Source of the DNA: an uncultured virus (IMG/VR IMGVR_UViG_3300029319_000021)
Taxonomy: Duplodnaviria > Heunggongvirae > Uroviricota > Caudoviricetes
Virus record (IMG/VR): IMGVR_UViG_3300029319_000021
Reading direction: 5' to 3' (one strand)
DNA: 64,000 nt
Shown: positions 1 to 33,078 of the stretch, piece by piece
Position numbering within the stretch: position 1 is the first letter of the stretch
How the letters are laid out: each line of letters starts with the position of its first letter
Program-made: the position numbers and the translations under genes
The notes under the pieces: generated by a model
Told to the model about the DNA's origin: nothing
Database searches by the model: none
Seen by the model: the letters and a program-made list of their open reading frames with translations, nothing else

Positions 1-24
1 TCTCTAAATAATCATAAATCGCAC

Positions 25-29737: not shown

Positions 29738-30397
29738 ATGGCAGCACTAATTTGTAATTTACCCTCATATGAAGTTTGGGTAAGAAAAGAATATCTTACT
29801 GATCATCAAAGTGGTCATGGAGAATATGTAAAAGGAATCTGGGTATCTGCAAAATCAATACCTGGACGTGCATTTTATTTTGAAACATATTTACCAGAAT
29901 ACGCAGCAATGTTTGATAAATTGCCAATTAGTGCATTCTTATCATCACCAGAAAAACCTGATCCAGATATGGAATTACATAATTTACAATTCTGGAATTG
30001 CATGGACTATGGTGTTGTAGCAGTGCAGAAACAATTTATAGGTTCAATGCATTTTGAAATACTCACAAGAGATTATGGAACACAGACAGGAACATATATT
30101 TGTACTTTAGATCATTATCATCAAGATGTTGATGCAATTGATTATTCTACAAGTGAAAATCCAGCAGAGCACAAGTCATCTAATCTAATAGAATTAGATA
30201 ATGGTCAGTTTGCATTGTATCCTAATAATAGAATGAGAATTTATGATAATAGTTTAACACCAGAACATCCTAAGGATCCTGACTTTAAAGTATCAACAGT
30301 ATACTATCAAGTTGAAAATGGTCATGATCGTGATGGTTTAGGTAATGATGAGAACTATTTTTGGAAAACTGCTAAAGAGACTAGCCACCAAAATTGA
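29738..30397 (+). CDS. Conserved cyanophage hypothetical protein
   Basis: 219-aa ORF; KSIPGRAFYFE and NGQFALYPNNR motifs. Confidence 0.8.
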   Translation: MAALICNLPSYEVWVRKEYLTDHQSGHGEYVKGIWVSAKSIPGRAFYFETYLPEYAAMFDKLPISAFLSSPEKPDPDMELHNLQFWNCMDYGVVAVQKQFIGSMHFEILTRDYGTQTGTYICTLDHYHQDVDAIDYSTSENPAEHKSSNLIELDNGQFALYPNNRMRIYDNSLTPEHPKDPDFKVSTVYYQVENGHDRDGLGNDENYFWKTAKETSHQN

Positions 30398-30456
30398 CTT
30401 TAGTTTTCAAAAATCGGGCAAAAAAATCTCCAGGTATTTTTTGCCTGTAGGGTTTT
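30397..30456. repeat. A-tract/T-tract hairpin element, copy 2
   Basis: CGGGCAAAAAAAT-ctccaggt-ATTTTTTGCCTG with flanks similar to 16943-17004. Confidence 0.65.
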
Positions 30457-30457
30457 C

Positions 30458-30473
30458 TGTAACAGATGTTACA
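30458..30473. promoter_or_regulatory. NtcA-type binding site
   Basis: TGTA-ACAGATGT-TACA matches TGTA-N8-TACA; 7 nt upstream of a -35 box. Confidence 0.65.
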
Positions 30474-30480
30474 CAACTGG

Positions 30481-30509
30481 TTGACTATATACTATACATG
30501 TGTTAGTAT
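30481..30509 (+). promoter_or_regulatory. sigma70-type promoter
   Basis: TTGACT-17 nt-TAGTAT; predicted start ~30516, just before the first aptamer. Confidence 0.7.
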
Positions 30510-30517
30510 TAACACAA

Positions 30518-30745
30518 CGTTCATCCAATGATAGAGATCACACTGCTGGCATCAATCCTTGCTGAACATAATGCTTCCCATTGGGAAATGACTTGTTCAG
30601 AATGGAATCGAAACAGAATTGAGATACTTAGCGATAAGAATCTTAACTCTGATGCTCACGAGTATCTTATAGATTACTTGAGAACTAAAGTGTCAGGACA
30701 GTGTGATCCTTATATCATTGGACGCAAGTAAGCCGACACGGAACG
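30518..30745 (+). ncRNA. Glutamine riboswitch-like aptamer 1 with a ~180-nt ORF-containing P2 loop
   Basis: P1 CGTTC/GAACG; P2 TCCAATGATA (30524-30533) pairs with TATCATTGGA (30713-30722); junction CGCAAGTAAGCCGAC. Confidence 0.65.
30528..30731 (+). CDS. 67-aa hypothetical protein nested in aptamer 1
   Basis: Open frame; hydrophobic N-terminus, two Cys; ATG lies in the P2 5' strand and TAA in the junction. Confidence 0.6.
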   Translation: MIEITLLASILAEHNASHWEMTCSEWNRNRIEILSDKNLNSDAHEYLIDYLRTKVSGQCDPYIIGRK

Positions 30746-30749
30746 GACA

Positions 30750-30797
30750 CGTTCATCTCCTACGGGAGACGCAAATGCCGACTGAAGGAACGGGGCA
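30750..30797 (+). ncRNA. Glutamine riboswitch (glnA / Downstream-peptide family) aptamer 2
   Basis: CGTTCA-TCTCC(TACG)GGAGA-CGCAAATGCCGACTGAAG-GAACG directly upstream of a DUF4278-type ORF. Confidence 0.8.
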
Positions 30798-30825
30798 AAA
30801 ATCCCTACTACTTTGGAGAAAGCCA

Positions 30826-30933
30826 ATGGCACAAGTCACTTATCGTGGTGTTGTTTATGACACCAACAACAAAAAAGCTCAGCAAAAAAAAGAGGTCGAA
30901 CTCACATATCGTGGTATTGCCCACGCTAAGTAA
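30826..30933 (+). CDS. DUF4278-family small protein (35 aa)
   Basis: MAQVTYRGVVY...LTYRG repeated YRG motif; GGAG RBS at 30815-30818. Confidence 0.85.
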   Translation: MAQVTYRGVVYDTNNKKAQQKKEVELTYRGIAHAK

Positions 30934-31025
30934 TGTTAGTAACAGCAGAAATATTAGCAGCATCTGCTATATTTCTAACTATCATTTACGCTGAAGCTAG
31001 ATTCTTGTACGGATACAAGTTCTAA
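30933..31025 (+). CDS. 30-aa hydrophobic peptide (MLVTAEILAASAIFLTIIYAEARFLYGYKF), not in ORF track
   Basis: TAATG coupling to DUF4278; ends just before a terminator. Confidence 0.55.
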   Translation: MLVTAEILAASAIFLTIIYAEARFLYGYKF

Positions 31026-31030
31026 ACTGT

Positions 31031-31062
31031 AAAGAGGGTCTATTGACAGACCCTCTTTTTTT
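31031..31062 (+). terminator. Rho-independent terminator
   Basis: AAAGAGGGTCT-attgac-AGACCCTCTTT plus T run. Confidence 0.85.
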
Positions 31063-31261: not shown

Positions 31262-31419
31262 GGCAAAAGCAAATTCTTAAAAATTTGAAAGAGGCACTTA
31301 AACAGGATTATTTGTATAATACTGAAGAACTTTCTTTCATGAAAGAGCAACTTGCCATTTTAGAGGAAGAAGTGTTAAAATCTATAAAAAAGAAACCTGA
31401 GGGATTTGGTAAAAAATGA
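31258..31419 (+). CDS. Small hypothetical protein (53 aa, MRQKQILKNLKEAL...GFGKK), not in ORF track
   Basis: ATGA overlaps on both sides. Confidence 0.65.
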   Translation: MRQKQILKNLKEALKQDYLYNTEELSFMKEQLAILEEEVLKSIKKKPEGFGKK

Positions 31420-32051
31420 ATGTAAAATTTGTGAGTATTACACCTGATGCAGAGAAGACAATGGCATATATTGCCAGAGTGTCAAATCCATCAAATCAGG
31501 AAAATGAGAAATATGCGGGACTTTTGAAATATTGTATTAAGCATAATCATTGGAGTGTTTTCGAACAATCCTCAATGACTTTGGAGATCGAGACGACACG
31601 AGGGTTAGCCGCACAAATTTTAAGACACAGAAGTTTCACATATCAGGAGTTCTCACAGAGATATGCTGACACAAAACTCTTAGATGATAAAATACCCTTA
31701 CCGAAACTCCGCAAACAAGACCTCAAGAACAGGCAAAATTCGACAGATGACTTAGATGAGTTTCTGATACAGGACTTTGAGTTAGAAATGGAGAAGTTGT
31801 TTAATTCTTCAATGAACTTATACAACAGAATGCTCGATAATGGAGTTGCAAAGGAATGTGCAAGATTTGTGCTTCCACTTGCCACACCAACAAGACTGTA
31901 TATGACTGGTTCGTGCCGTTCTTGGGTTCACTACATTAATTTGAGATCTGCACATGGTACACAGAAAGAGCACATGGACATTGCACATAAATGTAGAGAG
32001 ATATTTGTGGAGAAATTCCCGAACGTCTCAGAAGCTCTTGAGTGGGTCTAA
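31416..32051 (+). CDS. thyX: Flavin-dependent thymidylate synthase
   Basis: HWSVFE, RHRSFTYQEFSQRY (RHR-x7-S), ARFVLP, Q.EH motifs. Confidence 0.97.
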   Translation: MNVKFVSITPDAEKTMAYIARVSNPSNQENEKYAGLLKYCIKHNHWSVFEQSSMTLEIETTRGLAAQILRHRSFTYQEFSQRYADTKLLDDKIPLPKLRKQDLKNRQNSTDDLDEFLIQDFELEMEKLFNSSMNLYNRMLDNGVAKECARFVLPLATPTRLYMTGSCRSWVHYINLRSAHGTQKEHMDIAHKCREIFVEKFPNVSEALEWV

Positions 32052-32074: not shown

Positions 32075-32323
32075 ATGGCAACATATCCTGTGGTTCACAA
32101 AGAAACTGGTGAACAGAAAGAAGTATCAATGAGTGTTACTGAATGGAATAAATGGTGTGAAGATAATCCTGATTGGAAAAGAGATTGGAGTGATCCATCA
32201 ACTTGTCCAATGGCAACAGAAGTAGGAGACTGGAGAGATAAATTACGGAAAACTAAACCTGGATGGAATGATGTATTGGAAAAAGCACAGACTGCACCTG
32301 GTTCTAAAGTAAAAAAACTCTAA
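32075..32323 (+). CDS. Conserved cyanophage hypothetical protein
   Basis: MATYPV...TGE; GWNDVL motif; typical position between thyX and phoH. Confidence 0.75.
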   Translation: MATYPVVHKETGEQKEVSMSVTEWNKWCEDNPDWKRDWSDPSTCPMATEVGDWRDKLRKTKPGWNDVLEKAQTAPGSKVKKL

Positions 32324-33078
32324 TGGCAAGAAGAAAAAAAGGTGCCGAACAACCGATTGGGGTTGGATTGACGACTAAACAAATGAAAAGAAAAAAACCA
32401 TTGAGTTCTGACTATTTGGTTAATATTGAACCAATTAGTGAGAATCAAAAAAGACTTTTTAATTCATATAAAGAAGGAAAACAGATAGTTGCATATGGAT
32501 GTGCTGGAACTGGTAAAACATTCATCACACTCTATAATGCTCTAAGGGACGTTTTAGATGAAAGCACTCCATATGAAAAAATCTATATTGTACGTTCATT
32601 AGTCGCAACAAGGGAAATTGGTTTCTTACCTGGTGATCATGAAGATAAATCTGACATTTATCAAGTGCCTTATAAGCACATGGTAAAATATATGTTCCAG
32701 ATGTCTTCTGATGCTGATTTTGAAATGTTATATGGAAATCTGAAGGCTCAGGATACAATTAAGTTCTGGAGCACTTCATTCTTGAGAGGAACTACATTAG
32801 ATAATGCGATTGTCATTGTCGATGAATATCAGAATCTTAATTTTCATGAATTAGATTCGATTATTACTCGTATTGGTGAAAATAGTAAAATATGTTTCTG
32901 TGGTGATGCTAGACAGAGTGATTTGATAAAAACTAATGATCGTAATGGTATTGTAGACTTTATGAACATCTTGCGTAAAATGTCATCTTTTGATATAATA
33001 GAATTTGAGATAGAGGACATCGTTCGTTCTGGACTTGTCAAGGAATATATTATTGCAAAAATGGAAGCAGGTATGTAA
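32323..33078 (+). CDS. phoH: PhoH-family ATPase
   Basis: GCAGTGKT Walker A, GFLPG, FLRGTT, DEYQN, GD..QSD, IVRSGLV. Confidence 0.95.
   Translation: MARRKKGAEQPIGVGLTTKQMKRKKPLSSDYLVNIEPISENQKRLFNSYKEGKQIVAYGCAGTGKTFITLYNALRDVLDESTPYEKIYIVRSLVATREIGFLPGDHEDKSDIYQVPYKHMVKYMFQMSSDADFEMLYGNLKAQDTIKFWSTSFLRGTTLDNAIVIVDEYQNLNFHELDSIITRIGENSKICFCGDARQSDLIKTNDRNGIVDFMNILRKMSSFDIIEFEIEDIVRSGLVKEYIIAKMEAGM

Follow-up and report, generated by a model that had tools for sequence, protein, structure and literature searches.

Riboswitch aptamers have been treated as compact non-coding domains that stand before genes. A locus in an uncultured virus (IMG/VR record IMGVR_UViG_3300029319_000021) raises the question of whether a complete gene under selection can lie within an aptamer and, if so, how the two share one RNA. 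The window, as the whole stretch of DNA analysed is called here, is 64,000 nucleotides (nt) long; myoviruses of Prochlorococcus and Synechococcus give the region's best matches in DNA and protein, and the window is part of a T4-like cyanophage. At 30518-30797, a first-pass annotation made from the letters alone had described two tandem copies of a glutamine-riboswitch motif, with a 67-codon open reading frame (ORF) in the P2 loop of the first. The reading favoured here, with somewhat better than even confidence, is a double, interlocked glutamine-riboswitch aptamer that carries a gene in the P2 helix of its first unit, such that translation of this cargo and the glutamine fold would be mutually exclusive.

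All features given below between 30459 and 31058 lie on the + strand, except for one palindromic box that has no strand assignment. Unit 1 (30518-30746) contains every conserved piece of the glutamine aptamer. It begins with the P1 strand a5 (CGTTC plus A, 30518-30523), which is invariant in 28 of 28 aligned units, followed by the 5' arm of P2(1), TCCAATGATA (30524-30533), which contains the start codon at 30528-30530. The 3' arm, TATCATTGGA (30713-30722), is a perfect 10-bp complement of the 5' arm across the intervening 179 nt (30534-30712); simple arithmetic puts the odds of ten Watson-Crick pairs in a fixed register at ~1e-6. Directly 3' of this arm is CGCAAGTAAGCCGACACGGAACGG (30723-30746), which begins with the junction J1, CGCAAGTAAGCCGACAC (30723-30739). 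The nested gene (30528-30731) runs from the ATG in the 5' arm to a TAA at 30729-30731, in CGCAAGTAAG. Unit 2 consists of CGTTCA (30750-30755), the compact P2(2) hairpin TCTCC-TACG-GGAGA (30756-30769) and CGCAAATGCCGACTGAAGGAACG (30770-30792); read through 30793, the letters after the hairpin are CGCAAATGCCGACTGAAGGAACGG. The last stretch comprises the junction J2, CGCAAATGCCGACTGAA (30770-30786), and the strand b3, GGAACG (30787-30792). Direct reading thus bore out to the base what had been reported of the two CGTTCA...GGAACG copies, the 10-bp P2 arms, the 179-nt loop and the 67-codon ORF.

Is the nested ORF a gene, or is the insert only an RNA extension of P2 whose ORF goes untranslated? The second possibility is hardly credible. 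It could draw on the strong predicted fold of the locus (minimum free energy (MFE) -95.4 kcal/mol for the window's 285-nt RNA, z -6.84) and on the lack of a Shine-Dalgarno (SD) sequence before the ORF, but it is contradicted by the signatures of coding. The reading frame is retained over 171 loci at identities down to ~43%, the median dN/dS of the nested gene is 0.124 (716 sequence pairs; 0.331 over 950 pairs for the cargo of unit 2), and column entropy shows codon periodicity, with values of 0.28/0.21/0.66 by codon position. The product is a full-length match to the profile of phrog_6471 (E 1.6e-31, residues 1-64 on profile positions 1-66 of 66) and is represented by 288 clusters in a large protein collection. 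A tblastn search found the ORF in 57 phage records, all of them cyanophages or marine single-cell viral contigs; homologs in P-HM1, P-RSM4 and P-SSM4 are annotated as T4-like GC 429, and the family is that of syn9 gp196, a neighbour of gp197. The last three codons, G-R-K, are also the aptamer letters GGACGCAAG, and their third positions are almost invariant (entropy ~0), the synonymous sites being frozen where codons overlap the aptamer core. The nested ORF is a real protein gene under purifying selection.

The 67-residue protein has two cysteines, one histidine and one tryptophan among its conserved residues and belongs to no Pfam family. Its AlphaFold model is small and helical (pLDDT 73.4) and has no match in the PDB by Foldseek at E<=0.001; in the protein atlas it falls only into viral clusters of its own. 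Paralogy between the cargo families of units 1 and 2 was considered and set aside, since the hhalign result (probability 32%, E 4.8e-4) is suggestive only.

The layout is not peculiar to the window. Among 173 related loci (the window, 12 from GenBank and 160 from IMG/VR), 172 have the nested gene between the same aptamer halves, which upholds the earlier description of a gene within the P2 of a glutamine aptamer. Both units are nested in 152 of the 173; 11 have a nested unit followed by a compact one, as in the window; nine, mostly at locus ends, have one nested unit only; and one has none. All 12 GenBank phage loci have a homologous ORF between CGTTCA-TC...ATG and ...GA-CGCAAGTAAG(Y)CG..CGGAACGG, and in the same 12 phages unit 2 also encloses an ORF (T4-GC 430/541, syn9 gp197, phrog_504), which ends in the codons W-D-A-N-D or D-A-K-A-D, written in the aptamer letters GGGACGCAAACGACUGA. 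Pattern scans of IMG/VR found at least 240 further loci. With nested units written N and compact units c, the matches listed include at least 103 N,c, at least 90 c,N and at least 19 N,N loci; the others, at least 28, either contain an insert that lacks a full ORF, consist of one compact unit or could not be parsed. The 237 nested ORFs among the matches listed fit the unit-1 cargo profile in 99 cases, the unit-2 profile in 76 and neither in 62, the last being small proteins (56-98 residues) that have two cysteines and an N-terminus that is hydrophobic and in some signal-peptide-like. One further cargo type occurs in S-WAM2, S-RSM4, S-RIM and others, and gp197-type cargo was found in 310 GenBank phage records, all cyanophages; of the GenBank records with the two cargo families (57 and 310), the aptamer flanks were checked in 13. 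All four combinations of compact and nested units occur among the relatives. Both P2 hairpins are exchangeable cargo slots for small genes.

The helix that encloses the gene was examined in a covariation test anchored on the invariant flanks, with 87 distinct unit-1 arm pairs and 84 distinct arm pairs of nested second units. In P2(1), position 1 is paired in 85 of the 87 (UA), position 2 in 85 (CG), position 3 in 86 (CG 61, UA 23, UG 2) and position 5 in 83 (AU 79, GU 4); position 4 is often mismatched and is paired in 39. Nested unit-2 helices have each of positions 1-5 paired in 83-84 of 84 arm pairs, position 4 being CG 55, UA 17 or UG 11 and position 5 AU 61, UA 16 or CG 5. The paired fraction is 0.80, as compared with 0.36-0.65 when the partner is slid, and the observed count was reached by none of 2000 shuffles; the P2 arms do covary in homologs, as the first-pass annotation required. 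A second test used alignment A3 (MAFFT, with a hand-set structure), for which a k-mer filter had selected 28 diverse sequences of unit 1 out of ~150 distinct ones. Here, 86.8% of cells are paired versus 30-47% when slid; the covariation score is 0.176 versus 0.113 in shuffles (0 of 500 reached it), and 24 cells are changed on both sides versus 10.5. P2 is a real helix, and P2(1) a long, partly coding rod closed around the gene. In the MFE fold, the rod continues beyond the arms, with GATCACACTG (30537-30546) predicted to pair with CAGTGTGATC (30700-30709).

The codons themselves also appear to contribute to this structure. When the sequence was compared with synonymous shuffles that preserve the protein and its codon usage, native codons made unit 1 more stable in 18 of 21 representatives (median z -3.24); the median number of long-range pairs was 30, as against 19.8 in the shuffles. 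Unit 2 shows a weaker trend, with 20 of 21 representatives negative, 10 of 21 below -2 and a median z of -1.92. By these fold predictions, codon choice is biased towards structure, more so in unit 1 than in unit 2.

To which class does the aptamer belong? Under relaxed thresholds, unit 2 matches the Rfam Glutamine model (RF01739) with 32.9 bits (E 2.4e-5; gathering threshold 35), a match that includes the P2(2) hairpin, whereas unit 1 has no RF01739 match even at relaxed thresholds, and nothing in the window reaches an Rfam gathering threshold. The Glutamine-II model (Downstream-peptide, RF01704) gave 23.3 bits, below its gathering threshold of 33, with non-standard pairs in the 3' hairpin, whose loop in that class holds GGAACG. 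The conserved P1 strands CGUUC and GAACG are present in both units, their partners probably swapped between units. The locus shares with the type-1 glutamine riboswitch, known from the Synechocystis gifB/IF17 leader (PMC6212724) and from a crystallised 61-nt aptamer (PMC5393176), the words CGUUCA, CG(G/C)AA, AAGUAAG, UGAAG and GGAACG, a P2 base with U-A/C-G, a position upstream of a DUF4278 gene and, likely, a nitrogen signal. As had been proposed, the downstream ORF (30826-30933) encodes a DUF4278 peptide, scoring 29.6 bits against Pfam PF14105 (cut-off 25.3), and YRG/DUF4278-type peptides lie downstream in eight of the eight loci whose stretch reached far enough, out of 10 sampled with other cargo. 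Judged by its sequence, the aptamer belongs to the known glutamine-riboswitch class. It differs from the type-1 riboswitches named above in that P2 surrounds a translated gene; in that the E-loop strands, the P1 strands and P3 are divided between two units, one apparently folded within the other; and in being phage-borne, with unit 1 missed by the Rfam model and unit 2 below gathering.

The failure of the model on unit 1 has a natural control. In P-SSM2, unit 1 is a compact ortholog (P2 ACCTGA-TACAT-TCAGGT) whose J1 is identical to that of the window save for one letter, at a covarying position, and the Rfam model gives it 35.1 bits; an unannotated 49-codon ORF is nested in the unit 2 that follows. 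The prediction that copy 1 would score once its loop was deleted is supported by this stand-in. The same search gave no matches in the whole genomes of P-HM1, syn9 and P-SSM4, in which both units are nested, and only two weak matches, elsewhere, in S-CAM1. Since Rfam is blind to the nested genomes and finds the compact unit of P-SSM2, covariance-model scans do overlook the nested form, as had been suspected.

One departure from the earlier description concerns the relation between the two units. The presence of two aptamer units stands; a simple side-by-side arrangement probably does not, as covariation between the strands a3 (GAACG, 30741-30745) and b5 (CGTTC, 30750-30754) and pairing between J1 and J2 indicate an interlock. 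Tests were made on 365 distinct double units parsed from all the loci collected. The four P1-type strands are CGTTCA, GGAACG, CGTTCA and GGAACG in 355 of the 365. Nine of the 365 have GCAACG as a3 together with CGTTGA as b5, with the outer strands a5 and b3 unchanged, and single changes were not found; the nine vary in spacer, P2(1) and cargo family. The double change, the only covariation among these strands in the 365 units, would be compensatory only with a3, on the 3' side of unit 1, paired to b5, on the 5' side of unit 2.

Additional evidence for the interlock came from the junctions. Short-type junctions (GUCG:CGAC) pair in all 162 units that have them, AU, UA and GU variants included. 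In the long type, to which the window belongs, pair 16:7 is UA in 143, AU in 23 (the window's type), GC in 10 and UG in one; pair 15:8 is CG in 177; pair 13:10 is GC in 150, AU in 16, GU in 10 and unpaired in one; and pair 12:11 is CG in 162, UA in four and unpaired in eleven. The long-type helix scores 99 of 104 in register versus 10-40 of 104 when slid, and none of 2000 shuffles matched it. In an alignment of 76 sequences (the window and 75 of the 83 distinct segments with a compact unit 2), P3, the inner helix and P2(2) together have 98.3% of cells paired versus 29-57% when slid, and 81 cells changed on both sides versus 21 in shuffles (0 of 500); for P2(2) alone, 98.7% of cells are paired and three of four pairs are changed on both sides. 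In the crystallised single aptamer, the E-loop strands GAAGUAA and UGAAG flank P3 within one aptamer (PMC5393176). Here, the strands are divided, one to each unit. AAGUA is found in all 365 J1 junctions and in two of the 365 J2 junctions, and the YRAA ending in none of the former and 361 of the latter, so that J1 and J2 supply both strands, with a covarying helix in the position of P3.

The alternative is that two independent aptamers lie side by side, with P1 helices 30518-30522:30741-30745 and 30750-30754:30788-30792 and the gene in the first P2 loop. Each unit alone has the P1-P2-J-P1 order that Rfam models, the scores of unit 2 and of the compact P-SSM2 unit 1 were obtained as stand-alone aptamers, and tandem glnA RNAs are described in the glnA section of Weinberg et al. 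2010 (PMC2864571). The identity of the four strands in nearly all units makes both pairings possible, and the RNA may alternate between them. However, side-by-side folding would leave the nine GCAACG/CGTTGA units with C.C and G.G mismatches beside both junctions, where an interlocked fold has none, and would turn the covarying J1:J2 helix into a pseudoknot. It is also at odds with the division of the E-loop strands, the 3' strand never being found in J1 and the 5' strand almost never in J2, and the MFE favours the interlocked pairing: the window's MFE structure pairs 30518-30522 with 30788-30792 and forms the 30741-30745/30750-30754 hairpin. Two independent aptamers are decidedly unlikely as the whole account, and the side-by-side pairing may be an alternative state. 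Most likely, the units are interlocked, one inside the other.

In the interlocked fold, the outer P1 would be 30518-30522:30788-30792, formed by a5 and b3, and the inner P1' 30741-30745:30750-30754, a hairpin (30741-30754) closed by the loop GACA. The shared P3 would join 30734-30738 of J1 to 30776-30780 of J2, with an A.C mismatch in the middle, and the E-loop would combine AAGUAAG of J1 (30726-30732), which overlaps the stop codon of the nested gene, with UGAAG of J2. The order of elements would be outer P1, P2(1) with the gene, J1, shared P3, inner P1' hairpin, P2(2) and J2. The outer helix a5:b3 is proposed from the inner helix, P3 and the MFE. In three IMG/VR loci with double compact units (L184, L185 and L192), the spacer between the inner strands is ~20 nt instead of 3-4 nt and has a hairpin of its own, ATCC-TTAT-GGAT, which would lengthen the inner stem-loop.

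How could a gene enclosed in this way be translated? The ATG had been placed ~12 nt from the predicted transcription start, without an SD, and both parts of that description held. A sigma-70-like promoter (TTGACT-17-TAGTAT, 30481-30509) puts the inferred start near 30516, ~12 nt before the nested ATG and one or two bases before CGTTCA. Among 127 distinct upstream regions of related loci, 60 have TTGAnn-16..18-TAnnnT ending 7-9 nt before CGTTCA, none of the 127 distinct leaders contains an SD-like word, and in 119 of 126 cases the nested ATG falls on P2 position 5 or 6. From the promoter position, the lack of an SD and the placement of the ATG, the leader would be ~12 nt long and would itself be the P1 strand. 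Thermodynamic prediction for transcripts of 40-190 nt gives the start region (leader and first codons) an unpaired probability of 0.31-0.73; with the full unit, the value drops to 0.17-0.43 in each of 10 loci.

These data are consistent with the following model. The mRNA would begin almost at 30518 with the double aptamer and end with the gene for the DUF4278 (IF17-like) peptide. The nested start region would be free only in nascent or unfolded RNA. Once the 3' half had been made, and if no ribosome were present, the rod and both cores would close and bury the leaderless-like start. A ribosome at the stop codon in J1 would cover and unfold J1, P3 and the inner helix, so that cargo translation and the glutamine-binding fold would exclude each other. 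Cargo would be made mainly from nascent or open RNA and silenced by closure, and, if the gifB leader of cyanobacteria is a guide, the folded, glutamine-bound state would turn on DUF4278. Klahn et al. 2018 (PMC6212724) describe expression rising on nitrogen supply where glutamine aptamers precede DUF4278/gifB. In this model, the phage RNA would bind glutamine, and regulation would have the direction and timing outlined; the earlier suggestion of a reciprocal switch between the nested gene and DUF4278 is compatible with the fold predictions.

Several observations weigh against this reading or parts of it. Position 4 of P2(1) is unpaired in 48 of the 87 arm pairs, and RNAalifold on 28 full units gave P1 only, neither P2 nor its extension; P2 was missed because indels in the arms broke its columns. 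The extended rod has no single conserved register, and its support consequently comes from energies, not covariation. Unit 2 lies 2 bits below Rfam gathering and unit 1 is unmatched. With identical P1 strands in 355 of the 365 units, covariation within the outer helix a5:b3 itself is lacking, and the a3 and b5 changes lie within ~15 nt, so recombination could move both together. The strict promoter pattern is satisfied by only 60 of the 127 upstream regions, and an NtcA-like box lies ~51 nt, not 41.5 nt, from the predicted start. Lastly, compact P2 hairpins occur in relatives, so the sensor does not need the cargo.

This last point leads to a rival account in which the P2 loops are tolerant sites for small genes, the cargo is a passenger translated constitutively (for example during transcription), and the sensor controls DUF4278 only. 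The cargo is indeed dispensable and exchangeable, and all four compact/nested combinations exist. Truncated remnants exist (L178, L179, L186, L187 and L188), several cargo families look unrelated, with over a quarter of the nested ORFs among the matches listed fitting neither profile, and the tip of P2 lies outside the modelled conserved core of the Rfam consensus. A mere passenger would, however, not need codons selected for long-range pairing. In nearly all units, no more than a few bases separate the start and stop codons from the core, the ATG lying as a rule at P2 position 5-6 and the stops in the 3' arm or J, and the consistent lack of an SD likewise argues against a freely translated insert. 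A ribosome on the last codons would, on steric grounds, have to unfold the core. Together, these points make a pure passenger unlikely, and the reading in which cargo translation and the glutamine fold are mutually exclusive is preferred.

A more elaborate version of the preferred reading is put forward tentatively. The locus might be a translation-gated, two-pocket glutamine sensor with strand-swapped cores and two cargo slots, in which ribosomes hold the sensor open and glutamine-aided closure shuts the cargo start and opens DUF4278. If this is true, one short mRNA would report both nitrogen status and its own translation history, through an early burst of cargo and a later, glutamine-dependent IF17-like peptide.

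There are parallels in other systems. Group I introns house ORFs in their peripheral loops, and tmRNA has a coding frame in a functional RNA. As in those RNAs, a coding frame lies in a hairpin loop of a functional RNA and translation would compete with folding. Here, in contrast, neither splicing nor a homing endonuclease nor trans-translation is involved; the RNA that houses the frame senses a metabolite, and the first and last codons of the frame belong to the sensor's helices and junction. The MS2 maturation gene is under translational control by delayed RNA folding. The likeness is that the start would, by prediction, be accessible in the nascent chain only and be closed later by long-distance pairing with a 3' partner; the difference is that the closing structure here is a ligand-binding aptamer, so that closure could be tuned by glutamine. 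The glycine riboswitch is a tandem-aptamer system. With tandem riboswitch aptamers, such as the tandem glnA RNAs of Weinberg et al. 2010, the locus shares two sensing units per leader and contacts between them, but here the two seem to have exchanged strands and to lie one within the other instead of docking as neighbours, and genes are carried by one or both.

In the literature searched, no description was found of a gene inside a riboswitch aptamer or of the interlocked form. Weinberg et al. 2010 mention, in their glnA section, tandem glnA RNAs only, and their supplementary glnA alignment contains the compact aptamers of S-PM2 and P-SSM2, with P-SSM4 and syn9 absent from it. Four words of 9-13 letters taken from the nested form are absent from the supplementary alignments of that study, where words broken by gaps would escape such a search, and a fifth, of 8 letters, occurs there only in another motif. 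The passage on cyanophages in McCown et al. 2017 (PMC5473149) counts 'only two glutamine riboswitch aptamers' and states that phages rarely use riboswitches. As far as searched, then, the aptamer class is known, and the architecture and its implied logic are new. The two ends of a gene also serve as helices and junction of a sensor, and a single interlocked fold seems to unite two aptamer units. The nested form is invisible to Rfam, yet one of its cargo families is present in 57 GenBank cyanophage records and the other in 310, and IMG/VR adds hundreds of contigs. The nested form offers a natural system for studying the competition of translation with ligand-dependent RNA folding on one molecule, and it suggests that a small phage operon, related to the host factor that inactivates glutamine synthetase, is controlled by nitrogen status. 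The window contributes the nested-then-compact form and tests of the interlock.

The aptamer is the centre of what is most likely a small promoter-to-terminator cassette (30459-31058) of the T4-like cyanophage. The cassette opens with the NtcA-like palindromic box GTAACAGATGTTAC (GTA-N8-TAC, 30459-30472), a perfect palindrome ~51 nt before CGTTCA. Among distinct 110-nt upstream regions, 133 of 145 contain GTAN8TAC, where the frequency in the window itself predicts ~0.05 per 110 nt, and its centre falls into two position classes, ~45-54 nt or ~11-15 nt before CGTTCA. Because this palindrome is common upstream, transcription of the cassette may also respond to nitrogen status. The 35-residue DUF4278 peptide gene (30826-30933; phrog_5049) is preceded by the SD sequence GGAGA (30815-30819). 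It is followed by a 30-codon hydrophobic ORF, MLVTAEILAASAIFLTIIYAEARFLYGYKF (30933-31025), whose ATG overlaps the DUF4278 stop (TAATG) and which lies just before an intrinsic-terminator-like hairpin and T run (31031-31058) that ends the cassette. Contigs from four metatranscriptome runs of one study span 30517-30967; they reveal neither start, strand nor level, and the libraries may contain DNA. For that reason, no weight is given to the absence of coverage across 30362-30516 and past 30981.

A scan of cellular genomes with the same kind of pattern (one genome per prokaryotic species) gave 38 matches. Three are real, all on contigs that resemble phage and come from Prochlorococcus single-cell assemblies or a marine metagenome-assembled genome; the other 35, rejected, are GC-rich stretches without an ORF, ~25 such matches being calculated by chance.

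Further cargo families occupy P2 slots in IMG/VR loci (L199, L201, L205, L214, L341, L391 and others) and in S-WAM2, S-RSM4 and S-RIM32, and often end in aptamer-encoded DAND or DAKAD. The five decayed or shortened loci named above as remnants, all from IMG/VR, comprise one deletion fusing GGAAC of unit 1 to the 3' part of the unit-2 cargo, a cargo reduced to 8 codons, a 35-codon mini-cargo and two inserts of 50-60 nt that retain only the 3' end of the unit-1 gene. Nested ORFs lack a CDS annotation in P-SSM2 (L174, 1562-1711) and Sf-CH11 (L008, 492-692), and a riboswitch feature is annotated at the nested units in none of 13 annotated loci.

Upstream of the cassette promoter lies a gene (29738-30397) that carries a purM annotation in P-HM1. 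Between the two is an A/T-rich inverted repeat, GGCAAAAAAA...TTTTTTGCC (30417-30445), which may be the terminator of the upstream gene; P-SSM2 has a similar element at the same place. Just downstream of the cassette, as in other cyanomyoviruses, are ORFs whose translations appear ThyX-like (31416-32051) and PhoH-like (32323-33078).

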